Source of the DNA: Bacteroidota bacterium
GTDB taxonomy: Bacteria > Bacteroidota > Bacteroidia > UBA4408
Direction: 5' to 3'
Length of the DNA stretch: 64,000 bases
Assembly (NCBI GenBank): GCA_016721765.1
Contig: JADKHO010000004.1
Coordinates: 288,088 to 352,087 of the forward strand
In this document: positions 30,155 to 46,144 of the stretch, piece after piece
Numbering within the stretch: position 1 is the stretch's first letter
How the letters are laid out: each line of letters opens with the position of its first letter
Program-made: the position numbers and the translations under genes
The notes under the pieces: model-generated
Told to the model about the DNA's origin: nothing
The model's input: only the letters and a program-made list of their open reading frames with translations
Databases searched by the model: none

Positions 30155-33100
30155 ATGACAAAAATAATTTCTACACTCTTTCTCGTATTTTACCTCTCGA
30201 TTAGCGGCATTGCTCAAAAATTGCCAAGACAAATGCAATTGAGTTCCGACGGTAGAATGCTCACTACTGGTCAAAAAGCCAACAACTCATTTTACAACCA
30301 AAACAGCATTCCAATCCTCTACCTTAATTTTAGTGATACGGCTAATTTTTGGCAAGACATGATTTTATACCATGATTCGCTCAAAGATTATCCGGCTACT
30401 TTAATTTACAATGGAGTGACCTACGACAGTGTGGGCGTGCGTTTCAAAGGAAATTCATCCTACGAAAACATTGGGAATTCCTTAAAAAAATCATTTAACA
30501 TTTCGCTCAATGCCTTTATTGAAGGGCAAGGTATAAACGGATATAACACATTAAATTTAAACAATTGTTACGACGATCCTTCCTTTATGCGGGAAGTGTT
30601 TTTCGAAAATCAAATCAAGCAACATATCCCGGCCGCTCAAACAAATTTTGCGCATCTATATATTAACGGCGCCGATTGGGGATTGTATGCCAATGTGCAA
30701 CAGTTAAATCGAGATTTTCAAAAAGAGTGGTTTATGAGCGATGAAGGAGCAAATTTTCGTGCATCGCGACCGCCGGGCAGCACCGGTTCAGGCAGTGTAA
30801 TAAAAGCATCCTTCTTAAATTTAGGTCAGGATACGGCTGAGTATCAAAAATTTTACACACTAAAATCGAGCGAAACAATTGATCCATGGACCAAACTAAA
30901 AGATTTTTGTACCGCTTTGGATACCATTGCTCCGGCTCGAAAAGTTGCCGCACTGAGCCAATATTTGGATATTGACAGGGCGCTTTGGTTTTTGGCCAGT
31001 GAAATTGCGTTTAATGATTTTGACAGTTACATCGAAAAAGGGAAAAACGATTTTTATGTGTATTACGAAAAAGAAACCGGGCGTTTTGCTCCACTCGAAT
31101 TTGATGGGAACGATGTAATGGATACACATTATGTGAATGCAGTGAGTGCCTTGCGACACACAACCGACACACTTTTTCCGCTTATGAGTAAAATTATTGG
31201 AGTGCCCGAAATTCGCCAACGCTATTTGGCACACATGCGTACTTTGGTTGCCGATGAACAGGATACAACAAGCGCCTTTCCTTGGATTGATAATGCGTTT
31301 TCAATGATAGATAGCATTGTGTTTGCCGATACCATAAAATTATATAGCTATGCTGCTTTTCAAAATTCACCCGGCATTTTAAAATATTATTTGCGCAACA
31401 GGCGCTTAAAAATGCTCAACAATTCGGAGGTTGATAATGTGGGACCGATAATTACGGATGTTAGACTGTATAGCGATAGCCTGCTCTGGAAACAACCGGA
31501 AGCGAATCATGCCGTACAAATTAGGGCTCAAATAAATTCAGGAAATGGAATTAGCAAAGTAATACTCCATTCGGCTACAGGCTTGGTTGGGAATTTTAAT
31601 AAGACCCAAATGTTTGACGATGGTTTGCATAACGATAGCCTTGCCGGTGATGGAATATATGCAGCTACATTAGTGGGGCAAAGCGGTGGAACATGGGTAC
31701 GTTATTATGTGGAAGCAGCCTCCAACAACACCGCTAAAACGGTAAGTTTTGAACCACCTGGTGCAGAGCACAATATTTTTATTTACCTAGTAAAACCAGC
31801 TATTGCAGCCGATAGTACAAGTATTGTGATTAATGAAATAATGGCACGCAACAATACAACCGTTACAGATAGCGCCGGACAATATGAGGATTGGATTGAG
31901 CTTTATAATAACAGCAATCAGGCTGTGGATATTAGTGGCTATTATTTAACCGACAATGAATTTAATTTAACCAAATGGCAAATCCCGCAAGGCACTATTT
32001 TAAATGCAAATGAGTATTTAATTATTTGGGCGGATGAAGATGGGGCCCAAGGAAATTTGCATGCCAACTTTAAATTTTCGGCTAATGGAGAAACCTTAAT
32101 TATATTGAATGCACAAGGCGAATTGGTAAATAAAATTTCTTTCGGCCCACAATCACCGGATATTAGTTATGCCCGCATACCCAATGGAAATGGCCCGTTT
32201 GCAGCGCAATTCCCAACTTTTGGAATTAACAATAATCCAAAGCCACAAGTTGGATTTTTTACGAGTATCACCAATGGATGTGGTACAGCGAATGTGAGCT
32301 TTTTTAATACTTCTGTAAATGCAAGTGATTACGTTTGGGATTTTGGCGACAATTCACCAACATCCACAGCAGTTAATCCTACTCATATTTACACTTCCCC
32401 TGGAAATTTCACCGTTACTTTACAAGCCAATGGTGGTGGATGGACGGTGATTGATTCCTTGCCCAATAGTGTGCAGGTAAATCCCTTACCGGTATTTGAT
32501 TTTGGTGTAGATACAATTTATGCACCTTCCGTTAATTATTTGCTTGAAGCCGGAAATGGCTTCACTTCATATTCCTGGAATACCGGCGATCTTACACAAG
32601 GAATTTTGCTTAGCACCAGTGGCAATTATTGTGTGGTGGTGGGCGATGTAAATGGATGTACCGATACTGCTTGCGTGTATTTGAAATTTCCATTGGCTTT
32701 GCCACAAGCATCCTATACGGCTAATAATACGCAAGGCTGTGCTGCGCTATATGTAAGTTTCACCAACACTTCTATTAATGGGGTTAACTATATATGGGAT
32801 TTTGGTGATGCTAGTCCAATTTCAACGGACGAAAACCCGGAGCATGCCTTTAATGGAGCAGGTATTTACAATGTAAGTTTATCGGCCATAAATGCTATTG
32901 ACACTTCTGTATTTATTAGCAGCATTAGTGTTTTTCCTAATCCGGTTTTTTCCTTTGCGTCAGATACCATTCATGCTCCAAACGCCACCTTACTTTTGGA
33001 TGCCGGAACCGGTTTCACATCTTATGCATGGAACACCGGGGAAATAACACAAGCCATTACGGTTGATTCTAATGCCAACTATTGTGTTGTGGTTATGAAC

Positions 33101-33397
33101 CAATTTGCTTGTGCAGATACGGATTGTGTATATATAACTGTAAACGGATTAGGATTAAATTCCATGAATGAAGAAGTCCTGCAAACACTCTTTCCAAATC
33201 CTGCCAGTGATTTTGTGTTGCTAAGTTCTTCTTCCGCAAAAAACGAAAAAATTGAAATTTATAGTGCTCAAGGTGCATTAGTTTATCGCTCACATTTCAC
33301 TGCTCAAATTCGTATCGAAACCAATAATTGGGCTGAAGGAATTTATTTGGTGAAAAATGGGGAGCATAATTTTAGGAAATTGGTGATTCAGCGATAG
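30155..33397 (+). CDS. T9SS cargo: CotH kinase-family domain, lamin-tail domain, PKD and cysteine-containing repeat domains, and a C-terminal T9SS sorting domain
   Basis: CotH-like N-terminus (YNGVTYDSVGVRFKGNSSYEN..KKSFNISL), LTD (IVINEIMARNN..YEDWIELYNNSNQAVDISGYYLTD), PKD motifs (WDFGDNSP.., WDFGDASP..), repeated SY.WNTG...NYCVVV modules, and a terminal LFPNPASDFVLL...IYLVK sorting domain. Confidence 0.75.
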   Translation: MTKIISTLFLVFYLSISGIAQKLPRQMQLSSDGRMLTTGQKANNSFYNQNSIPILYLNFSDTANFWQDMILYHDSLKDYPATLIYNGVTYDSVGVRFKGNSSYENIGNSLKKSFNISLNAFIEGQGINGYNTLNLNNCYDDPSFMREVFFENQIKQHIPAAQTNFAHLYINGADWGLYANVQQLNRDFQKEWFMSDEGANFRASRPPGSTGSGSVIKASFLNLGQDTAEYQKFYTLKSSETIDPWTKLKDFCTALDTIAPARKVAALSQYLDIDRALWFLASEIAFNDFDSYIEKGKNDFYVYYEKETGRFAPLEFDGNDVMDTHYVNAVSALRHTTDTLFPLMSKIIGVPEIRQRYLAHMRTLVADEQDTTSAFPWIDNAFSMIDSIVFADTIKLYSYAAFQNSPGILKYYLRNRRLKMLNNSEVDNVGPIITDVRLYSDSLLWKQPEANHAVQIRAQINSGNGISKVILHSATGLVGNFNKTQMFDDGLHNDSLAGDGIYAATLVGQSGGTWVRYYVEAASNNTAKTVSFEPPGAEHNIFIYLVKPAIAADSTSIVINEIMARNNTTVTDSAGQYEDWIELYNNSNQAVDISGYYLTDNEFNLTKWQIPQGTILNANEYLIIWADEDGAQGNLHANFKFSANGETLIILNAQGELVNKISFGPQSPDISYARIPNGNGPFAAQFPTFGINNNPKPQVGFFTSITNGCGTANVSFFNTSVNASDYVWDFGDNSPTSTAVNPTHIYTSPGNFTVTLQANGGGWTVIDSLPNSVQVNPLPVFDFGVDTIYAPSVNYLLEAGNGFTSYSWNTGDLTQGILLSTSGNYCVVVGDVNGCTDTACVYLKFPLALPQASYTANNTQGCAALYVSFTNTSINGVNYIWDFGDASPISTDENPEHAFNGAGIYNVSLSAINAIDTSVFISSISVFPNPVFSFASDTIHAPNATLLLDAGTGFTSYAWNTGEITQAITVDSNANYCVVVMNQFACADTDCVYITVNGLGLNSMNEEVLQTLFPNPASDFVLLSSSSAKNEKIEIYSAQGALVYRSHFTAQIRIETNNWAEGIYLVKNGEHNFRKLVIQR

Positions 33398-34659: not shown

Positions 34660-35337
34660 TTAGGTCTTTTTCAAACTCGTAAATACCAAATCATTTAAAA
34701 AAGCAATAATATCACTTTCCTCCTTCGATTTACCAAAATCGGTAAGCGAGGGTAAATGATTCATAAAGAAGTTTTGAAAATGTGCCATTTCAATAATGGT
34801 GGATGCCAATGATTTTGGATATTTATACTTAGGATTGCATTCTTTAATAACACTGCCAATCAATGCACAAAGTTCTTTATAAGGTTTAAAAAATTGTTGC
34901 TTGTTGTCCTCCCCTACTTGTTTCGTTAGATAGGCTTTTGAACCCTCCGATATGATAATTTTGTGCAGCAAACTTTCGTTGATATAATTGGTTTGCATAT
35001 CGTCTTCCACTGCAGTGGATAACAGTTTGATGATACGTTTCAATTTTATAGACGGGTCTTTAATATTGTTGGTGTGAAAACTTATTTGATACGCTAACCA
35101 GCCCCAATACCAAGCGGTTAAATAAAGCAACAATTTATGTTTGTTTTCAAAATAACGGTAAACGCCTGCTTCTGTGGTGCCAATATCTTCAGCCAGTTTC
35201 TTAAAGGTAAACACTTCAAAACCTAATTTATAGATCAGTTGAATACTATGTTTAAGGATATTCCTGCCTAATTCGGAATCTTCGGGATTTCGGAGGAACA
35301 AAGCCTCATTCATTTTAATCTGTAAGTGTAACTTCAT
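34660..35337 (-). CDS. TetR/AcrR family transcriptional regulator
   Basis: N-terminal TetR HTH (FTFKKLAEDIGTTEAGVYRYFENKHKLL). Confidence 0.8.
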   Translation of the reverse strand: MKLHLQIKMNEALFLRNPEDSELGRNILKHSIQLIYKLGFEVFTFKKLAEDIGTTEAGVYRYFENKHKLLLYLTAWYWGWLAYQISFHTNNIKDPSIKLKRIIKLLSTAVEDDMQTNYINESLLHKIIISEGSKAYLTKQVGEDNKQQFFKPYKELCALIGSVIKECNPKYKYPKSLASTIIEMAHFQNFFMNHLPSLTDFGKSKEESDIIAFLNDLVFTSLKKT

Positions 35338-35406
35338 TTGAGGGTTTAGAAGAGTAGGAAAAAAGGTTAAATCAAAAGTACAAAAAAATATTTTACAATT
35401 TTTTAT

Positions 35407-35442
35407 GATAGTTTTACTATCTTTTGTAAAACTATTACTATC
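35407..35442. promoter_or_regulatory. Palindromic operator-like sites in the divergent TetR / bestrophin intergenic region
   Basis: Perfect inverted repeat GATAGT-TTT-ACTATC (35407-35421). A second inverted pair, atagttttac / gtaaaactat, overlaps it. Confidence 0.5.
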
Positions 35443-35468
35443 TTTGTGCTCGAAATTAAAATGCTACT

Positions 35469-36362
35469 ATGTTACTTAACAAAAAAATACCGGCCAGCTA
35501 CATCTTTAACAAAGTAAAGTTTGATTTAGTTTATATTTTACTTGTATCAGCTGTTGTGCTATTTATTACCGAAAGATTTAAAGTCCTCTTGCCGGAAATG
35601 CCCTTAACTATTCCGGCATTTATTGGAACGGCCATCTCCATTTTGCTTTCATTTAAATTAAATCAATCTTACGATAGATGGTGGGAAGCTCGAAAAGTGT
35701 GGGGCGCAATTGTTAACGATTCTCGCAGCTTTGTTATTCAATTGCAAAGTTTGACCTCCAAAAACAATGCAGAAGCTGTTAAAAAAATAGCCTTACGTCA
35801 GATTGCCTGGTGCTATTCACTTGGTCAATCGCTTAGAGGTTTAAATCCCATTTCAAATTTAGAGCAGTATATTTCTATACAAGAGCTTGAAGAAATAAAG
35901 CAGCATAACAACAAACCACTTGCATTACTTCAGCTTCATGCAAAGGATATTAAGGAGCTCAAAGAAAAAAATCAAATTGATATTTTTTCACACTTGCAAT
36001 TAGATGCCACTTTAGTGAGACTCTGCGATTCACAGGGAAAATCAGAGCGGATAAAAACGACTGTTTTTCCGGTTACTTATCGCCATTTTTTACATGCCAT
36101 CATTTATCTTTTTGTTGTTACACTTTCTATTGCCTTAAAAGACATAGCTGTAATTTTTGAAATTCCGCTTTTACTGTTGCTATCCAGTGCATTCTTTTTA
36201 CTTGAAAAATCCGCAACGCACATGCAAGATCCATTTGAAAATAGGCCTACCGACACCGCTGTAACAGCCATAGCAAGAACCATTGAAATAAACATTAAAC
36301 AACTTTTAAAGGAGGCAGAAGTTCCATCACCGCTTTCGCCACAAAAATTTTATCTATCCTAA
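35469..36362 (+). CDS. Bestrophin-like (UPF0187/YneE) anion channel family protein
   Basis: Carries the SYDRWWEARKVWG signature after TM2. Has four TM segments. Confidence 0.8.
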   Translation: MLLNKKIPASYIFNKVKFDLVYILLVSAVVLFITERFKVLLPEMPLTIPAFIGTAISILLSFKLNQSYDRWWEARKVWGAIVNDSRSFVIQLQSLTSKNNAEAVKKIALRQIAWCYSLGQSLRGLNPISNLEQYISIQELEEIKQHNNKPLALLQLHAKDIKELKEKNQIDIFSHLQLDATLVRLCDSQGKSERIKTTVFPVTYRHFLHAIIYLFVVTLSIALKDIAVIFEIPLLLLLSSAFFLLEKSATHMQDPFENRPTDTAVTAIARTIEINIKQLLKEAEVPSPLSPQKFYLS

Positions 36363-36379
36363 CTAATAAATAAAAAAAA

Positions 36380-37030
36380 ATGAAAACATTAACAAAAGAA
36401 ATGCAAGAAGCCATAACTCCCAAATTGGCACTGGAACTATTAAAAGAAGGGAACAAACGATTTGTGAATAACCTTAAGGTAAACCGCAATCTATTACAAC
36501 AAGCAAATGAAACTTCAGATGGGCAGCACCCTTTTGCAGTTATTTTAAGTTGTATTGATAGCCGCACTTCTGCAGAACTAATTTTTGACCAGGGTCTTGG
36601 TGATATTTTTAGTGTTCGAATAGCCGGCAACATTATTAATGAAGATATCCTTGGAAGTATGGAATTTGGCTGCAAAGTAGCGGGTGCAAAAATTATTGTT
36701 GTGTTAGGCCATACCAAATGTGGCGCTGTGAAAGGTGCCTGCGATCACGTTGAAATGGGGAACTTAACAGCATTGTTAACCAAAATACGTCCTGCAGTAG
36801 ATGCCGAAACTACAATCAAGTCAAATCGAGTTGCCAGCAATTCGGAATTCGTTGAAAAAGTTGCAATCATCAATGTAAAGCGAACAGTAGAGTCAATCAT
36901 GCAACGTAGCCCTATATTAAAGGAAATGATTGAAAGCGGAAAAATTGGAATAGTTGGCGGAACACACAACATTTCTAGTGGTGAAGTAACTTTTTTTTCA
37001 GATACGCTAAATTCAGAGGTAATAAACTAA
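36380..37030 (+). CDS. Beta-class carbonic anhydrase
   Basis: Zinc ligands in CIDSR ... HTKCGAV, with a typical 216 aa length. Confidence 0.9.
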   Translation: MKTLTKEMQEAITPKLALELLKEGNKRFVNNLKVNRNLLQQANETSDGQHPFAVILSCIDSRTSAELIFDQGLGDIFSVRIAGNIINEDILGSMEFGCKVAGAKIIVVLGHTKCGAVKGACDHVEMGNLTALLTKIRPAVDAETTIKSNRVASNSEFVEKVAIINVKRTVESIMQRSPILKEMIESGKIGIVGGTHNISSGEVTFFSDTLNSEVIN

Positions 37031-40179: not shown

Positions 40180-42585
40180 ATGAAATCAAAATTTTTTACC
40201 CTTGTCTTACTTTTTATTTTAGCCATTGCTGGTGATAGCAGTATCGCTCAAAATACAAATTGCCCAATTCCTTCAGGGCCTGTAACAACTGTGGTGAGCA
40301 CAACAAGTGCTACCGTTTCGTGGACGGCTCAAACCGCAAACGGATATTATAGAGTTCAATATCGCGCGCTTTCCTTGAGTTCCGGGACCTGGACGCAGAT
40401 GTATGCGCAAACAAATTCTTATACCATTAGTGGATTATTATGCGGAACTGCCTATGAATGGCAAGTTCAAGCAATTTGTGCCACTATTGGCGGAGTAGCC
40501 AATACCAGTGCTTTTACAACCAGTCTTGTTTTTACAACACTTCCCTGCAACACTACTTGCCTTCCGCCTACAGGCTTAAACACAAGCGCGATTGCAACAA
40601 ATAGCGCTGTTGCGAATTGGACAGCACAATCCGGCATTGGAGTTTACCGCATTCAATACCGACCGGTTACGAATGTAATTACTGCATGGACCCAAATTAC
40701 TGTGCAAGGTACAAGCTATACCATGGCAAATTTAATTTGTGGAGTAGCCTACGAGTGGCAAGTACAAACCCTATGCAGCACAGCCGGCACTGGAGGAACT
40801 AGCGCTTATTCATCAAGCACTGTGTTTACAACCTTAACTTGCCCCACCACTTGTCCTGTTCCTGCCGGTTTAACTGTTAGTTCAATTACAAGCACTGGTG
40901 CAACATTAAGTTGGACAAGCGCTTCGCCTGCACCGGCTTATTATCTGATACAATACCGCCCTTTGAATACTGTAGGTTGGACTTCCGTCACCGTTCAAGC
41001 AAATCAATCTTATACCTTAACCGGATTAAGTTGCAATACTGCTTATGAATGGAAGCTTCAATCCATTTGCGCTAATTCGGGAACAGCTGGTGGATCGAGT
41101 GCTTTTTCAACACCTTTATCTTTCACTACTTCAGCTTGCCCAACTCCAACCTGCGCAGTTCCAACAGGGCTTAACAGCAGCGCGGTTTCCTCAACAAGTG
41201 TTAATTTAGCTTGGACAGCAGCAAGTGGTGCTATTTACTACAAAATACAATATAGACCGTTAAATCCTGCCAATGCGAATTGGACACAAGTTTATGTAAC
41301 AGCCAACTCATCTTATATATTGAGCTCATTGGTTTGTGGAACGAGCTATGAATGGCAAGTACAATCTATTTGTTCTTCTGCAAGCAATGGTGGTTCGAGT
41401 GCATTTTCTACCTCCGCAACATTTTCGACTCTTGCTTGCACATCAACCTGTGCGGTGCCTAGCGGAATGACAACCGGAAATATTACTTCCTCATCGGCTG
41501 TTGCTTCTTGGACGGCAGTTGCGGGAGTGAGTATTTACAATTTGCAATATCGTTTAGTAACGAATGCAATTACCAATTGGACACAAGCTACTGTGCAGGG
41601 AACAACCTTTAGTTTAGCCAATTTAATGTGTGGAGCGCTTTATGAATGGCAGGTTGCTTCAGTTTGCACAAATACATTAAATGGGACATCGGTAATCAGC
41701 AGCTTTTCGCCAAGCACAACATTTACAACTTTGGCTTGTGCTACTACATGCCCGGTTCCTAGCGGATTAGCTTCTGGAAACATTACAGCATCGAGTGCGT
41801 ATGTTGGATGGGCAGCTGTATCTGGAGTTTATGCATATCGCATTCAATATCGCGCCATATTGCCTAATGTACCTCCAACCAATCCCTGGACACAAATCAG
41901 TTTGCAATCAAACACCACTACTTTAATTAATTTGCTCTGCAACACTAATTATGAATGGCAAGTACAATCCATTTGTACTACGGCAACAAATGGTACAAGT
42001 GCATTTTCATCTAGTTCATTCTTTACCACTTCTGCCTGCGCTAATTTATGCGCTGTGCCGCTTAATTTAATGGCAACAAACATTGCACCTCAAAGCTGTT
42101 TGGTTAAATGGACAAGCCCAACACCAGTGTTCGGATTTAGCATACGATATCGAAAAATAAATACTGGTGCTTGGACAGTTGTTAGTTCAAATACTTACTC
42201 CAAACAATTATTCGGACTACAGGCTCAATCTTATTATGAATGGCAAGTACAAAGTATTTGCACAACACCAGGAGGAACTACTGCCGGTTCAGTTAGTGCT
42301 TGGTCTCCCTCGTCTTATTTCCATACCCACTTTGTAATAGTAGTGGGTCCTAATCCGGCCGATAGGTTGTTAAAAGTGGAGATGGAGTTGAATGATACAG
42401 ATGAGACAGCCCACATCCAATTGCGCAACATATTGGGTGCAGTTGTTTTTAGTACAGAAAAAACTTTGTATGACGGAAAAAATGAATTAGAAATTGCGAC
42501 TGCTAATTTCACCGAAGGGCTTTACTTTTTAAGTGTGAGCGGCGTTTCAGGAAAACAGGTTTCAAAAGTATACGTGCGACATTAA
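40180..42585 (+). CDS. T9SS cargo protein with seven tandem fibronectin-type-III-like repeats
   Basis: Seven ~98 aa repeats, each with C..TC.VP.GL ... W...YR.QYR ... L.CGT.YEWQVQSIC. The C-terminal sorting domain is GPNPADRLLKV...GLYFLSV. Confidence 0.7.
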   Translation: MKSKFFTLVLLFILAIAGDSSIAQNTNCPIPSGPVTTVVSTTSATVSWTAQTANGYYRVQYRALSLSSGTWTQMYAQTNSYTISGLLCGTAYEWQVQAICATIGGVANTSAFTTSLVFTTLPCNTTCLPPTGLNTSAIATNSAVANWTAQSGIGVYRIQYRPVTNVITAWTQITVQGTSYTMANLICGVAYEWQVQTLCSTAGTGGTSAYSSSTVFTTLTCPTTCPVPAGLTVSSITSTGATLSWTSASPAPAYYLIQYRPLNTVGWTSVTVQANQSYTLTGLSCNTAYEWKLQSICANSGTAGGSSAFSTPLSFTTSACPTPTCAVPTGLNSSAVSSTSVNLAWTAASGAIYYKIQYRPLNPANANWTQVYVTANSSYILSSLVCGTSYEWQVQSICSSASNGGSSAFSTSATFSTLACTSTCAVPSGMTTGNITSSSAVASWTAVAGVSIYNLQYRLVTNAITNWTQATVQGTTFSLANLMCGALYEWQVASVCTNTLNGTSVISSFSPSTTFTTLACATTCPVPSGLASGNITASSAYVGWAAVSGVYAYRIQYRAILPNVPPTNPWTQISLQSNTTTLINLLCNTNYEWQVQSICTTATNGTSAFSSSSFFTTSACANLCAVPLNLMATNIAPQSCLVKWTSPTPVFGFSIRYRKINTGAWTVVSSNTYSKQLFGLQAQSYYEWQVQSICTTPGGTTAGSVSAWSPSSYFHTHFVIVVGPNPADRLLKVEMELNDTDETAHIQLRNILGAVVFSTEKTLYDGKNELEIATANFTEGLYFLSVSGVSGKQVSKVYVRH

Positions 42586-44353: not shown

Positions 44354-45109
44354 TTAGGCAACAAAATACATATCGATCTCACCCTTGTTTTTGGCAGGAA
44401 TTTTTCCTCTATAAATGCAATTGAATTTATCTTTGACTTTTTGATAAGTGCTTCCGCTGATATTCACTTTACCTGCTTCTCCGCTAGATTCAAGTCGTGC
44501 AGCAATATTTACAGTATCGCCCCAAATATCATATGCGAATTTTTTGAACCCAACTATTCCTGCCACAACCGGTCCGGTGTGTATACCAATTCTGATTTCA
44601 AAAATTGCTTTGTGCTCGCTTTTTCTAACTTCAAGATGGCGCTGCATAAACTGATTAATTTCGATAGCAGCTTTAACGACATCTTCGGCATGCGTAGTAT
44701 TTACGACTGGCAATCCACCGGCACACATATACGCATCCCCAATAGTTTTAATTTTTTCGATTCCATGTTTTGAAATTATCTCATCAAAAGCCTTGAAACA
44801 GGTATGAATTTCAGCAACCAATTCGGCCGGATTCAAACTTTCGGATATTTGAGTAAAGCCTTTAAAATCGGTAAACATTACAGAAACTTCATCAAATTGC
44901 TTTGCTTCTGCACTTCCGGTATTTTTCAACTCTTCTGCCACTTCCGGTGGAAGAATATTTAGCAACAAATCATCACTTCTCTTTTTCTCATAGCTGATTT
45001 TTTTTCGTTGCTTGACAACTAATATTAAAAACAAAGCCACAATTGCAAGTACTAATATAATTCCATTTCGAATAATTGCCTGAACTCTTAAACGTTCCTG
45101 ATATTCCAA
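44354..45109 (-). CDS. Class III adenylate/guanylate cyclase catalytic domain with N-terminal TM helix (TTG start; downstream half of an interrupted gene)
   Basis: Cyclase core FTDFKGFT..IKTIGDAYMCAGG..GIHTGPVVAGIVG..YDIWGDTVNIAARLES. It is in frame with the upstream TPR ORF across a single TAA. Confidence 0.75.
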   Translation of the reverse strand: MEYQERLRVQAIIRNGIILVLAIVALFLILVVKQRKKISYEKKRSDDLLLNILPPEVAEELKNTGSAEAKQFDEVSVMFTDFKGFTQISESLNPAELVAEIHTCFKAFDEIISKHGIEKIKTIGDAYMCAGGLPVVNTTHAEDVVKAAIEINQFMQRHLEVRKSEHKAIFEIRIGIHTGPVVAGIVGFKKFAYDIWGDTVNIAARLESSGEAGKVNISGSTYQKVKDKFNCIYRGKIPAKNKGEIDMYFVA

Positions 45110-45124
45110 TTTTTCGGTCTTTAA

Positions 45125-46144
45125 TTAAAAATCTTTTAATGCGTTTTGCTTTATCATTTCGGAATAGGCCAATTGATTTCGCTTTACTAAAATGTTGGTA
45201 CTATCGTTCCAAGAAAAATACAAACGATGCGCCTCCAGCGCCTTTTGCGGCATGTTCATTTTTTCGTACAAATAGCTTAGTTGCAAATAAACATCTCTTA
45301 ATACAGATTTTGCCCTTCCTCCTTTTCCTGCTTCAATTGCAGCTGTAAAACATTGCAAGGCATTGGCATAATCACCCTTTCTGAAATAAATTTTCCCCAA
45401 TCCCTTTAAGGAACCTGCCTTCACAAAAAACTCCGAAGAATCGCTAAGGGATAAACTTTTGGTATAGTAAATAAACGCTGAATCAGGCCTTTCACTTTCC
45501 AAAAAAACATCTCCCATGAGTTGGCAATCGTTACCGATAGAGTATGTATTTTTGAATTTATGATCAGAAGCCAAGCATTGCCGCAAGAGTGATTCAGCTT
45601 TTTCATAATTTTTTAAGGATAAATAAACAGCCGCCACATTGCCGAGCAAAAACACTGCTAATTTTTCATTACCCAAGTGCTTATACACGTTTATGCCGGC
45701 ATTAAAAGCATCCAATGCCTTATCATACTCACCAAGGGAGGAGTAGGAAAGCCCTTCTGTATTGTATGAACTGGCCAACTGAATGCTATCTTTCATTTCA
45801 ATCGCAAGTGCCTTACGATATGAATTATATTCTATTGCCTTACTATACTCTTCAATCCGCCAATAATATCCGCTTAAATTACGATACGCACGAAATAACC
45901 CATTGGTGTAGTTGATTCTTTTTGAAATGGCAAGTGCAGAATCTTCAAATACTTTTTCCACGCCAGGAGAATGTGCATATAAGGCCGCAAACTTAAAGTA
46001 CTGTATAACCTTTGCAGTATCAGTAGTCATCGAATTTGCAACGCGTACTAAAGAGTCAGGATTGGGATTGGAAACGGAGGCACTTGCCTTCAAAAAAAGG
46101 CAACATCCCAAAGAAAACATTAACCAAATTTGGCCCAATTTCAT
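45125..46144 (-). CDS. Secreted TPR-repeat protein (upstream half of the split sensor-cyclase)
   Basis: Signal peptide plus multiple TPR-like repeats. Confidence 0.6.
   Translation of the reverse strand: MKLGQIWLMFSLGCCLFLKASASVSNPNPDSLVRVANSMTTDTAKVIQYFKFAALYAHSPGVEKVFEDSALAISKRINYTNGLFRAYRNLSGYYWRIEEYSKAIEYNSYRKALAIEMKDSIQLASSYNTEGLSYSSLGEYDKALDAFNAGINVYKHLGNEKLAVFLLGNVAAVYLSLKNYEKAESLLRQCLASDHKFKNTYSIGNDCQLMGDVFLESERPDSAFIYYTKSLSLSDSSEFFVKAGSLKGLGKIYFRKGDYANALQCFTAAIEAGKGGRAKSVLRDVYLQLSYLYEKMNMPQKALEAHRLYFSWNDSTNILVKRNQLAYSEMIKQNALKDF

Follow-up and report, generated by a model that had tools for sequence, protein, structure and literature searches.

A TetR-associated bestrophin and carbonic anhydrase cassette of Bacteroidota, its candidate operator, and a sister version with a SulP transporter

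Fusions of SulP transporters with carbonic anhydrases (CA) were reportedly described in the 2004 work of Felce & Saier. Pairs of this kind, in which a membrane anion carrier gene lies directly beside a beta-CA gene, have been interpreted in flavobacteria as bicarbonate systems (PMC3595038). Among eukaryotes, bestrophins are permeable to HCO3-, and the algal bestrophins BST1-3 are proposed to deliver HCO3- to a CA, which in Chlamydomonas is CAH3, placed in series with the channel (PMC6708349); this CA is lumenal, lies on the acidic side and supplies Rubisco with CO2 by dehydrating HCO3-. TetR-tetA, QacR-qacA and AcrR-acrAB each combine a gene for a regulator with an N-terminal helix-turn-helix (HTH), divergent from its target, with a short palindrome overlapping the target promoter. 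KpBest of Klebsiella is, to our knowledge, the only characterised bacterial bestrophin, and we know of no CA partner or physiological role for it; nor do we know of any description of TetR control and its operator for a SulP or a bestrophin version of such a pair. KpBest itself has been reported to be a channel for Na+ (PMC4893618).

The locus described here lies in a 64-kb stretch of DNA from a member of the Bacteroidota (the whole stretch analysed, hereafter the window) and contains the following three genes.

34660..35337, minus strand: gene for a TetR/AcrR-family regulator, 225 aa (ORF and PF00440)
35469..36362, plus strand: gene for a bestrophin-family channel, 297 aa (ORF and PF25539 Bestrophin_2)
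36380..37030, plus strand: gene for a beta-class CA, 216 aa (ORF and PF00484)

These open reading frames, together with Pfam matches for all three products, bear out the gene identities and the divergent TetR arrangement of the original prediction. The bestrophin and CA genes are as close as had been claimed, with a gap of 17 nt in place of the 18 nt given before (the bestrophin stop codon ends at 36362 and the CA ATG begins at 36380).

The regulator matched PF00440 TetR_N over residues 27-72 (E 3.1e-08; 33.7 bits, cutoff 24), and its C-terminal domain matched no Pfam family. The closest solved structures were weak matches driven by the HTH, neither a recognisable relative of the ligand-binding domain nor a relative with a known ligand was found in Pfam, NCBIfam or the solved structures, and the AlphaFold2 model had a pLDDT of 50.0, obtained with a shallow alignment of relatives of 76-88% identity only. 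As in the classical TetR units, the regulator gene diverges from its presumed target; the target here is an ion channel with an enzyme and not a drug efflux pump, and the promoter has the -33/-7 layout of Bacteroidota.

The channel protein was matched by PF25539 Bestrophin_2 (E 1.6e-55, 189 bits against a cutoff of 27) over residues 10-277, corresponding to profile positions 18-287 of 288, and carries the SYDRWWEARKVWG motif at residues 67-79. It shares Pfam family and length with KpBest, whose structures 4WD7/4WD8 were matched over residues 12-291 (E 1.6e-26); weaker matches were obtained with 7EK1 ('Bestrophin-like protein') and 7PL9 (a rhodopsin-bestrophin fusion), and by tblastn the protein is about 27-28% identical to Proteobacterial plasmid bestrophins, including those of Klebsiella. 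The bestrophin neck (I/F-x3-I/F-x3-F in the second transmembrane helix) was located by alignment with KpBest, using what we take to be the KpBest residue numbering. The putative neck residues T54/I58/F62 are kept in 86 of 86 Bacteroidota relatives; two of the three are hydrophobic, positions two and three (I, F) being, by this alignment, shared with KpBest, whereas the first is Thr in the window bestrophin and, by that numbering, presumably Ile in KpBest. Ion selectivity is not readable from the sequence of this bestrophin, and its AlphaFold2 monomer reached a pLDDT of 47.8 (shallow alignment, relatives 76-88% identical).

The CA matched PF00484 Pro_CA (E 2e-39, 135.8 bits against a cutoff of 25.7) and belongs to the NCBIfam subfamily PRK15219 (266.1 bits against a cutoff of 221), of which it covers profile positions 42-245 only, the N-terminal 41 positions being absent. 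It starts with MKTLTKEMQEAITPK and has no signal peptide, and is therefore predicted to be on the cytoplasmic side. The closest solved structure was the beta-CA of Mycobacterium tuberculosis (2A5V/1YM3, 2.4e-31), with whose active-site segments in 2A5V the motif C-x-D-x-R ... H-x-x-C is aligned; the Zn ligands and the Asp-Arg dyad (C58, D60, R62, H111 and C114) show no variation among 66 orthologues. Activity as a COS/CS2 hydrolase was considered and rejected, the match to those hydrolases being 24-25 bits against 112 bits to the M. tuberculosis CA, and the comparison favours CO2 hydration over COS/CS2 hydrolysis as the predicted activity. The resemblance to the algal bestrophin/CA arrangement that had been drawn from this locus is weak. 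A bestrophin in series with a CA would be common to both; the window CA, having no signal peptide, would be cytoplasmic, unlike the lumenal CAH3, its genes form a putative repressor-controlled operon, and the flux is expected to be outward. No Rubisco or carboxysome genes were seen among the window genes examined.

Close orthologues of the bestrophin were compared in 80 Bacteroidota genomes that carry it, taken as species representatives, in which the arrangement is TetR/bestrophin/CA in 53, bestrophin-CA in seven and bestrophin alone in 20. The TetR orthologues (47-87% identical) are divergent from the bestrophin gene in those 53 of 80 loci, and bestrophin and CA genes are adjacent in 60 of 80 genomes. 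Co-transcription of the two genes is likely, because their spacer has a median of 19 nt (58 loci) and no terminator-like site lies between them; the terminator scan gave none for the 3' end of the operon either. The carriers are labelled as Flavobacteriales, Chitinophagaceae/Chitinophagales, Sphingobacteriales, Cytophagales genera and Saprospiraceae. The genes flanking the cassette in the window (alpha/beta hydrolase and M28 peptidase) did not recur among the compared loci, and no further gene cluster was common to more than seven loci; PurE and PurK genes lie directly downstream of the cassette in 4-7 of them. Horizontal spread of the cassette is suggested by the high identity of its proteins (75-90%) between loci of differently named orders with differing flanks. 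In the window, the cassette shows none of the marks of a mobile element that were looked for (flanking repeats, an integrase, a clear GC anomaly). No alignment columns were found that separate CA-linked from CA-less bestrophins. The pairing was rejected as a general bacterial rule: the plasmid homologues of Hymenobacter, Spirosoma and Sphingobium, which are the three distant neighbourhoods inspected (all plasmid-borne, none from Klebsiella), have no CA neighbour and adjoin metal and cation transport genes.

The intergenic region between the TetR and bestrophin genes contains the following elements.

35373..35380, minus strand: candidate -7 box for TetR transcription, reading TACTTTTG and, on the plus strand, CAAAAGTA; a match to TAnnTTTG
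35391..35406, no strand assigned: conserved block TTTTACAATTTTTTAT (consensus TTTtACAATTaTTTAT), abutting the palindrome upstream, from an anchored alignment of 53 loci
35407..35421, no strand assigned: candidate operator palindrome GATAGT-TTT-ACTATC, GATAGTTTTACTATC, read from the sequence and its conservation
35426..35435, no strand assigned: right arm GTAAAACTAT of a window-specific 10-nt inverted repeat, with the left arm ATAGTTTTAC at 35408-35417
35437..35446, plus strand: -7 box TATCTTTG (35439-35446) of the bestrophin-CA operon, overlapped by a second ACTATC half-site (35437-35442)

Promoters were sought first as sigma-70 sites, of which the scan gave 4 against 10.6 in shuffles; this model is not applicable to Bacteroidota promoters, so the Bacteroidota sigma-A -7 consensus TAnnTTTG, whose box lies at -12 to -5 (PMC9723704), was used instead. 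TAnnTTTG was present in 47 of 54 loci, mostly as TATCTTTG with a conserved C before it, and the transcription start of the bestrophin-CA operon is predicted near 35451. The palindrome is a 6-3-6 inverted repeat with GATAGT and ACTATC arms around TTT, and its family consensus is TGATAGTAtTACTATCa. Within the window, GATAGTNNNACTATC has a single exact match, and allowing up to two mismatches yields 4 matches where 1.4 are expected, an excess that is not significant by itself. Such within-window statistics are insufficient, and the palindrome is judged to be beyond chance because it is conserved across loci at a fixed promoter distance: of 54 orthologous regions between TetR and bestrophin genes, 53 contain ATAG[TC]NNN[AG]CTA[TC], and in about 42 of the 46 loci with both elements it precedes the -7 box by 31 nt. 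With the -7 box placed as above (PMC9723704), the palindrome occupies positions of about -44 to -30 in the promoter of the bestrophin gene, and at 31 nt upstream of the -7 box it covers the -33 region, which fits a repressor operator. The palindrome is thus supported, by its conservation and by its fixed place over the -33 region, as the candidate TetR operator that it had been predicted to be.

Downstream, a conserved block, CTATCTTTG, comprises the -7 box and the further ACTATC half-site, 21 nt away from the first one, and TACTATCTT repeats 35415-35423 directly at a spacing of 21 nt; three SulP-type loci (described below) have a complete second palindrome at 22 nt from the first one. The overlapping second inverted repeat noted in the original prediction is present in the window, its 10-nt arms ATAGTTTTAC and GTAAAACTAT being 100% complementary, but it is not conserved as an inverted repeat in other loci, where the stretch corresponding to 35426-35435 is loosely conserved (aaAaa.TaTT) and forms no inverted repeat. 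On the other side of the palindrome, 39 of the 53 orthologous regions have CAAAnnTA 31-39 nt upstream, 26 of them at exactly 35 nt, and from this we infer 35373-35380 as the TetR promoter box. The block at 35391-35406, at least 80% conserved at most positions (53 loci), may contain a -33 element for TetR transcription (a minus-strand TTG) or extend the operator.

TetR, operator and CA of the kind found in the window also occur with a SulP (SLC26/BicA-type) transporter in the place of the bestrophin; no SulP homologue is present in the 64-kb window itself. Metagenome contigs were scanned with one exact operator 16-mer, and 19 loci had relatives of TetR, bestrophin or CA at the site, 18 of them with a TetR orthologue or a cassette transporter. 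In 12 of the 19, a SulP gene of 519-526 aa (PF00916, 213-215 bits) lies between or beside the operator and the CA gene, and two have a bestrophin at the site; in the nineteenth (L119), the operator is followed by genes for a porin-like protein, a lipoprotein CA and a protein resembling Na+/Ca2+ exchangers. About 100 of the 120 matches, having no TetR, CA or transporter nearby, were set aside because such an AT-rich 16-mer is expected many times by chance. Independently of the motif, a search with the SulP protein gave the order TetR / SulP / Pro_CA in Daejeonella rubra and in metagenome-assembled genomes (MAGs), and one SulP-type locus found in this way (L205) has an operator and spacing identical to those of the bestrophin type. 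TetRs and CAs of the two types interleave in neighbour-joining trees (no support values), and their identities to the window proteins overlap (SulP-type against bestrophin-type, 62-86% vs 61-89% for CA and 46-71% vs 47-87% for TetR). New here is this frame of TetR, operator and CA common to the bestrophin and SulP versions.

The two carriers are unrelated in fold and mechanism, a bestrophin being a pentameric pore and a SulP protein a dimeric elevator-type carrier. The window cassette is accordingly not a member of the SulP-CA modules, its carrier being a bestrophin, though it would work like one. Among the closest solved relatives of the cassette SulP is 6KI1, whose deposited title is 'low affinity sulfate transporter' and which we take to be BicA, the bicarbonate transporter of cyanobacteria; it is no nearer to the cassette SulP than is the fumarate transporter SLC26Dg (5DA0). 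Since SulP replaces the bestrophin within the same TetR/operator/CA frame, the bestrophin would carry the substrate of the SulP, most plausibly bicarbonate; strictly, the swap argues for the same role rather than for bicarbonate, because SulP proteins carry many anions and SLC26Dg is as close as 6KI1. This replacement, the adjacency in 60 of 80 genomes, the short median spacer and the unshared flanks all speak for the earlier suggestion that channel and CA form one CO2/bicarbonate unit. The accompanying claim that such a unit is uncharacterised in Bacteroidota agrees with the literature searches, in which nothing relevant was found on a bacterial bestrophin/CA operon, on TetR control of it, or on CA-based alkaline pH homeostasis in bacteria.

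We consider it probable, though by no means assured, that the module is a TetR-repressed bicarbonate conduit with a CA. It would be a self-contained cassette of three genes, the TetR repressor gene being divergent from the bestrophin-CA operon. A TetR dimer would occupy GATAGT-N3-ACTATC over the -33 region of the operon's sigma-A promoter, with a further ACTATC half-site at the -7 box two helical turns from the palindrome, and, because the bound repressor would lie over the -33 region, transcription of the operon would be blocked until a ligand releases the repressor. The cytoplasmic CA would interconvert CO2 and HCO3-, and the inner-membrane bestrophin would provide the path across the membrane for HCO3-, a substrate deduced from the non-orthologous replacement.

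At an inside-negative potential of 120-180 mV, the Nernst [in]/[out] ratio of a monovalent anion is about 0.01-0.001, so the channel should let HCO3- leave. CO2 + H2O would thus give H+, which is kept, and HCO3-, which is expelled electrophoretically; the whole would hold protons back and acidify the cytoplasm, an advantage when the external pH is high. Proton retention and pH control are favoured over carbon concentration because a channel under an inside-negative potential should export bicarbonate, and the carbon-concentrating reading offered earlier is weak, as an anion channel in the energised inner membrane cannot accumulate bicarbonate. Taken by itself, the efflux and pH part is put forward tentatively, its direction being argued from thermodynamics only. 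The flux-direction argument disregards gating and rectification, and the SulP version, if a Na+-coupled importer like BicA, would run opposite to the bestrophin version. A further possibility, which we hold with considerable doubt, is that the prokaryotic bestrophins of this clade are HCO3- exit channels which, with a cytoplasmic CA, turn respiratory CO2 into retained protons, the HCO3- passing onward in some relatives via a linked DUF2490 outer-membrane porin. Freshwater and soil Bacteroidota would in this way maintain their pH under alkaline conditions, with SulP as an exchangeable version and a dedicated TetR sensor as the switch.

Of the alternatives to the bicarbonate conduit outlined above, bicarbonate acquisition survives best, though we think it unlikely: HCO3- would be brought in and the CA would equilibrate CO2/HCO3- for carboxylases when CO2 is scarce, and bicarbonate for anaplerosis is the usual reading of the flavobacterial SulP-CA pairs (PMC3595038). 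The carboxylases concerned would be pyruvate/PEP carboxylase, acetyl-CoA carboxylase, PurK and carbamoyl-phosphate synthetase. PurK uses bicarbonate by established biochemistry, and the PurE/PurK genes downstream of the cassette in 4-7 loci are in line with acquisition, but this adjacency is a minority feature. A solved SulP relative, 6KI1, presumably the bicarbonate importer BicA, points the same way. Against it, a passive channel cannot accumulate HCO3- against an inside-negative potential (Nernst ratio about 0.001-0.01), any excess imported would be lost as CO2 through the cytoplasmic CA, and respiring heterotrophs make CO2 internally.

Less probable still is that the transported ion is not bicarbonate, the bestrophin being a Na+/cation channel like KpBest, or bestrophin and SulP both moving another anion (chloride, sulfate or an organic acid), with the CA buffering pH or supplying HCO3- as counter-ion. 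The description of KpBest as conducting Na+ (PMC4893618), the metal and cation transport genes, and not CA genes, around the distant plasmid bestrophins, the diverse substrates of SulP proteins with SLC26Dg as close as 6KI1, and the Na+/Ca2+-exchanger-like gene that follows the porin-like and lipoprotein CA genes behind the L119 operator would all suit such an ion. A cation channel and an anion transporter are, on the other hand, unlikely to be interchangeable in one conserved frame, the constant partner is a CA, whose sole charged product besides H+ is HCO3-, and counter-exchange is inapplicable to a channel. Linkage without functional meaning, in which the block spreads horizontally and the palindrome is conserved simply as part of the promoter, would accommodate the 75-90% identity across differently named orders with differing flanks and the 20 orthologous bestrophins that stand alone, but is highly improbable given that the transporter is exchanged while TetR, operator and CA are kept, that gene spacing is operon-like, that bestrophin-CA is kept without TetR in seven loci, and that the palindrome is two-fold symmetric like the sites of dimeric repressors and lies beside a TetR gene every time.

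The cassette gives bacterial bestrophins a first testable role, the passage of bicarbonate, as a concrete and genetically tractable hypothesis with cultivable carriers of both versions (Flavobacterium saccharophilum DSM 1811, F. hibisci and F. circumlabens for the bestrophin type, Daejeonella rubra for the SulP type), and the natural swap of bestrophin and SulP is a ready-made complementation experiment. Few repressor/operator pairs have been characterised in Bacteroidota, and the candidate operator with its promoter would also be a useful regulatory tool there. If bicarbonate is handled, the cassette would extend the algal CO2-concentrating pairing of bestrophin and CA to heterotrophic bacteria, and would be a channel-based addition to the bacterial inorganic-carbon systems (SbtA, BicA/SulP, BCT1, DAB and MpsAB). 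Should the bestrophins prove to be exit channels, this would be an undescribed route of alkaline-pH homeostasis and the first physiological role of a bacterial bestrophin.

The three open reading frames were located exactly where the original prediction had placed them, and their identities as a TetR regulator, a bestrophin and a beta-carbonic anhydrase (CA) were borne out by Pfam and NCBIfam profiles:

34660-35337, minus strand: TetR-family regulator gene (225 aa; Pfam TetR_N, 33.7 bits, cutoff 24)
35469-36362, plus strand: bestrophin-family channel gene (297 aa; Pfam Bestrophin_2, 189 bits, E 1.6e-55)
36380-37030, plus strand: beta-CA gene (216 aa; Pfam Pro_CA, 135.8 bits)

The Bestrophin_2 profile was matched over almost its full length, and the bestrophin stop codon is separated from the CA start by 17 nt. 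The nearest solved structure of the channel is Klebsiella pneumoniae bestrophin (KpBest, 4WD7/4WD8, E 1.6e-26), with weaker matches to 7EK1 ('Bestrophin-like protein', 372 aa) and a rhodopsin-bestrophin fusion. The CA was assigned to the PRK15219 carbonic anhydrase subfamily (NCBIfam, 266 bits; cutoff, 221), covering profile positions 42-245 with the N-terminal 41 positions absent; because it begins with MKTLTKEMQEAITPK and has no signal peptide, it is taken to be cytoplasmic. Its nearest solved structure is the M. tuberculosis beta-CA (2A5V/1YM3, E 2.4e-31), and the catalytic residues C58, D60, R62, H111 and C114 were unchanged in an alignment of 66 CAs. TetR gave weak matches to solved structures, restricted to the DNA-binding domain, and profile and structure searches returned no informative relative of its ligand domain.

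The cassette is surrounded by ordinary chromosomal Bacteroidota genes (alpha/beta hydrolase, M28 peptidase, DciA, RecF and T9SS-sorted surface proteins), and neither flanking repeats nor a clear compositional anomaly was found around it. Two large secreted proteins with T9SS C-terminal sorting domains are encoded on the plus strand, one of 1080 aa with CotH, lamin-tail and PKD domains (30155-33397) and one of 801 aa with five fibronectin type III repeats (40180-42585). About 7 kb from the cassette, at 44354-46144 on the minus strand, a 251-aa class III adenylate/guanylate cyclase catalytic-domain protein (PF00211, 1.2e-55) is encoded directly downstream of the gene for a TPR protein (339 aa); among cyclases of class III, some are known to respond to bicarbonate or CO2.

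Using an alignment of close homologues as query, one genome per species (GTDB) was scanned, and 80 loci with bestrophins 60-81% identical were obtained, all from Bacteroidota except a few MAG contigs with probably wrong labels. Four typical Bacteroidota bestrophin loci (L013, L049, L056 and L061) are labelled as Rhizobium sp., Cyanobacteriota or Vulcanimicrobiota MAGs, which is probably mis-binning in public assemblies. By tblastn, the divergent TetR gene, bestrophin and CA occur together in 53 of the 80 loci, bestrophin and CA without TetR in 7, and bestrophin alone in 20, so that the pairing first noticed in the window is kept in 53 plus 7 loci with differing flanks. Bestrophin and CA are separated by a median of 19 nt (58 loci). 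Neither of the two genes flanking the window cassette recurs in any of the 80 loci, and clustering of all ORFs revealed no further gene common to more than 7. Distant plasmid bestrophins of Hymenobacter, Spirosoma and Sphingobium (32-52% identity) have aquaporin, CDF, P-type ATPase and Czc genes as neighbours and no adjoining CA; CA pairing is therefore a trait of this bestrophin subfamily, not of bacterial bestrophins generally. Among the genome loci (L002-L081), TetR, bestrophin and CA are 75-90% identical between loci labelled as different orders or families (Fluviicola, Segetibacter, Daejeonella, Telluribacter, Saprospiraceae and Cyclobacteriaceae) within wholly different flanks, and in Flavobacterium TetR is only 47-50% identical with a CA of 84-86% in five of six loci (65% in L067). 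These identities and flanks suggest that the cassette has spread horizontally and that its genes have had partly separate histories.

The proposed operator, GATAGTTTTACTATC at 35407-35421, is a 6-3-6 inverted repeat. Within the 64-kb window GATAGTNNNACTATC has a single exact match, and its relaxed matches (4 against 1.4 expected) were not enriched. When 54 TetR-bestrophin intergenic regions were aligned, a conserved block of about 55 nt (consensus TTTtACAATTaTTTATGATAGTAtTACTATcatTtaaaAaa.TaTT.cTATcTTTG) was obtained, with the palindrome core ATAG[TC]NNN[AG]CTA[TC] in 53 of the 54 and TAnnTTTG, mostly as TATCTTTG, in 47. The latter is the Bacteroidota sigma-A -7 box, located at -12 to -5 in Flavobacterium (PMC9723704). 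The core starts 31 nt upstream of this box in about 42 of the 46 loci having both, and with this fixed distance the first palindrome of the original prediction holds as the putative TetR operator. The candidate promoter elements in the window are as follows:

35439-35446, plus strand: -7 box of the bestrophin-CA operon (TAnnTTTG match)
35373-35380, minus strand: candidate -7 box of TetR (CAAAnnTA consensus match)

From the former, transcription of bestrophin and CA is predicted to start near 35451, which would put the palindrome at about -44 to -30, covering the -33 element; this predicted position is the classical one for repression through promoter occlusion. In 39 of 53 loci CAAAnnTA precedes the palindrome by 31-39 nt, and TetR autoregulation is possible, with no evident sign of it in the geometry. 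The overlapping second inverted repeat of the original prediction is present in the window (10-nt arms at 35408-17 and 35426-35) but is not conserved as an inverted repeat across the 54 regions. The same intergenic region carries a 9-nt direct repeat, TACTATCTT, at a spacing of 21 nt. A second, weaker operator site is nevertheless plausible, because the -7 box embeds another ACTATC half-site at a distance of two helical turns and in three SulP-type loci (L132, L193 and L198; see below) the whole palindrome occurs twice, 22 nt apart. In two Flavobacterium loci (L057 and L060) the region preceding the bestrophin holds two full palindromes, ATAGTAATACTAT and ATAGTATTACTAT, 31 nt apart; with copies at 31 or 22 nt, operator number differs among lineages.

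Metagenome contigs were scanned for the operator 16-mer TGATAGTATTACTATC, and 120 matches were obtained, most with nothing relevant nearby, as is to be expected when so large a collection is searched with a short, AT-rich sequence. Relatives of TetR, bestrophin or CA were present at 19 sites, 18 of them with a TetR orthologue or cassette transporter (the nineteenth being L119, described below). The operator is adjoined by a bestrophin in two of the 19 loci and by a 519-526 aa SulP transporter (Pfam Sulfate_transp, 213-215 bits) in 12, with the same CA next in line on every contig that reaches far enough; the remainder are truncated or different. The nearest solved structures of the SulP proteins are SLC26Dg (5DA0) and 6KI1, deposited under 'low affinity sulfate transporter' and which we take to be the cyanobacterial bicarbonate transporter BicA. 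Since this search was conditioned on the operator, a protein-only SulP search was also performed, and all three homologues examined, from the cultured isolate Daejeonella rubra and two Chitinophagaceae-type MAG lineages, showed the order TetR(-), SulP, Pro_CA. The D. rubra intergenic region contains ATAGTATTACTAT, 18 nt and then TATCTTTG, the same operator and spacing. Identities to the window proteins overlap between the SulP and bestrophin cassette types (CA, 62-86% and 61-89%, respectively; TetR, 46-71% and 47-87%), and the TetRs and CAs of both types interleave in neighbour-joining trees built without support values. The name Daejeonella occurs on both types (the L018 MAG, bestrophin; D. 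rubra, SulP). These data are most simply read as an exchange of the membrane component, at least one and probably several times, while regulator, operator and enzyme were kept as a conserved frame.

SulP-CA pairs and bestrophin-plus-CA cooperation in algae are already known. Full-text literature on bestrophin with carbonic anhydrase, TetR, inorganic-carbon transport or bacterial bicarbonate yielded only algal, plant and animal work, in agreement with the original view that the arrangement is uncharacterised in Bacteroidota; a TetR-controlled bacterial bestrophin-CA operon and its interchangeability with a SulP form thus appear undescribed in the literature searched. Compared with known bicarbonate-carrier/CA modules, a channel here replaces the carrier, and a defined putative repressor and operator are added.

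Repressor and CA are constant, and the variable place is taken by either of two membrane proteins that are unrelated to each other. The SulP family includes the bicarbonate carrier BicA. Bicarbonate carriers among bestrophins include human bestrophins and algal BST1-3 (PMC6708349). Because CA is constant and both variable families include proven bicarbonate carriers, we infer with moderate confidence that HCO3- crosses the membrane through the bestrophin and that channel and CA form a regulated CO2/HCO3- module, as originally proposed; cassette conservation and the SulP exchange lend this part of the proposal comparative support.

A channel passes ions solely down their electrochemical gradient, and by the Nernst relation the equilibrium ratio of a monovalent anion is about 0.01-0.001 at 120-180 mV inside-negative, from which it follows that HCO3- would leave the cell; the likeliest direction of flux through the bestrophin is outward. 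The main rival holds that bicarbonate is imported to feed anaplerotic carboxylation. It is slightly strengthened by genes resembling PurE and PurK that come after the cassette in 4-7 loci (L004 5583-7226, L023 6173-6784 and L065 5625-6131; recognised from sequence appearance and from clustering), PurK being the enzyme of the bicarbonate-dependent step in purine synthesis. Import for anaplerosis is also how flavobacterial SulP-CA pairs are usually interpreted from annotation (PMC3595038), but it is hard to square with a channel that is passive and a CA that is cytoplasmic. Alternatively, an ion other than bicarbonate may be transported, SulP substrates being diverse. The putative neck of the Bacteroidota bestrophins is T54/I58/F62 by alignment with KpBest, for which we take it to be I/I/F (numbering likewise assumed), a difference from which selectivity is not readable. 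KpBest, the only characterised bacterial bestrophin, is reported as a Na+ channel (PMC4893618). A CO2-concentrating role of the algal kind, the analogy drawn in the original prediction, is unlikely, because a cytoplasmic CA would lie on the side of the membrane opposite to that required, and the window genes examined gave no sign of a Rubisco or carboxysome setting.

Several accessory genes accompany the cassettes. DUF2490 genes were found with the bestrophin type at two loci (L016 and L023, in the latter between bestrophin and CA) and were especially frequent beside the SulP type, at nine loci or six distinct cassettes after merging duplicates (L205/L206, L208/L209 and probably L177/L200). 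Their positions include:

L016, 5568-6278: DUF2490 gene
L023, 4906-5577: DUF2490 gene
L100, 3289-3975: DUF2490 gene
L200, 1200-1802: DUF2490 gene
L205, 6337-7092: DUF2490 gene
L207, 6666-8142: DUF2490 gene
L208, 6808-7542: DUF2490 gene

None lies beside the window cassette, and two DUF2490 proteins used as tblastn queries had no match anywhere in the window. The DUF2490 family (TC 1.B.81; PMC4827864) comprises putative outer-membrane porins, with members predicted to be signal-peptide-bearing outer-membrane beta-barrels (bioRxiv 10.64898/2026.07.29.741452), and may provide this pathway with its step across the outer membrane. On metagenome contig L119 (166-2762), a piece that ends on the TetR side, the 16-mer precedes a DUF2490 gene by 58 nt. 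Next come genes for a beta-CA of 252 aa, whose signal peptide (…LIAC) is of the lipoprotein type, and for a membrane protein of 316 aa that resembles Na+/Ca2+ exchangers; the arrangement may represent a third variant of the regulon, in which the CA is periplasmic. In two SulP-type cassettes a ribosome hibernation factor gene (Ribosomal_S30AE; L207 6299-6631 and L208 6301-6636) lies between CA and DUF2490, hinting at stationary-phase or stress expression of these cassettes. By sequence appearance, several loci without TetR (L058 3304-3810, L078 1681-2133 and L070 3484-3924) have a small heat-shock gene resembling Hsp20/alpha-crystallin immediately upstream of their bestrophin, and another lies near the cassette in L006 (2488-2925).

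These accessory genes hint at an envelope-spanning function in ion or pH stress. With outward flux of bicarbonate, CA would turn respiratory CO2 into cytoplasmic HCO3-, which would leave through the bestrophin, driven by the membrane potential, while the proton stays inside. The net effect would be electrophoretic proton retention, which would help to keep the cytoplasm below an alkaline external pH, where outside protons are too scarce for quick capture.
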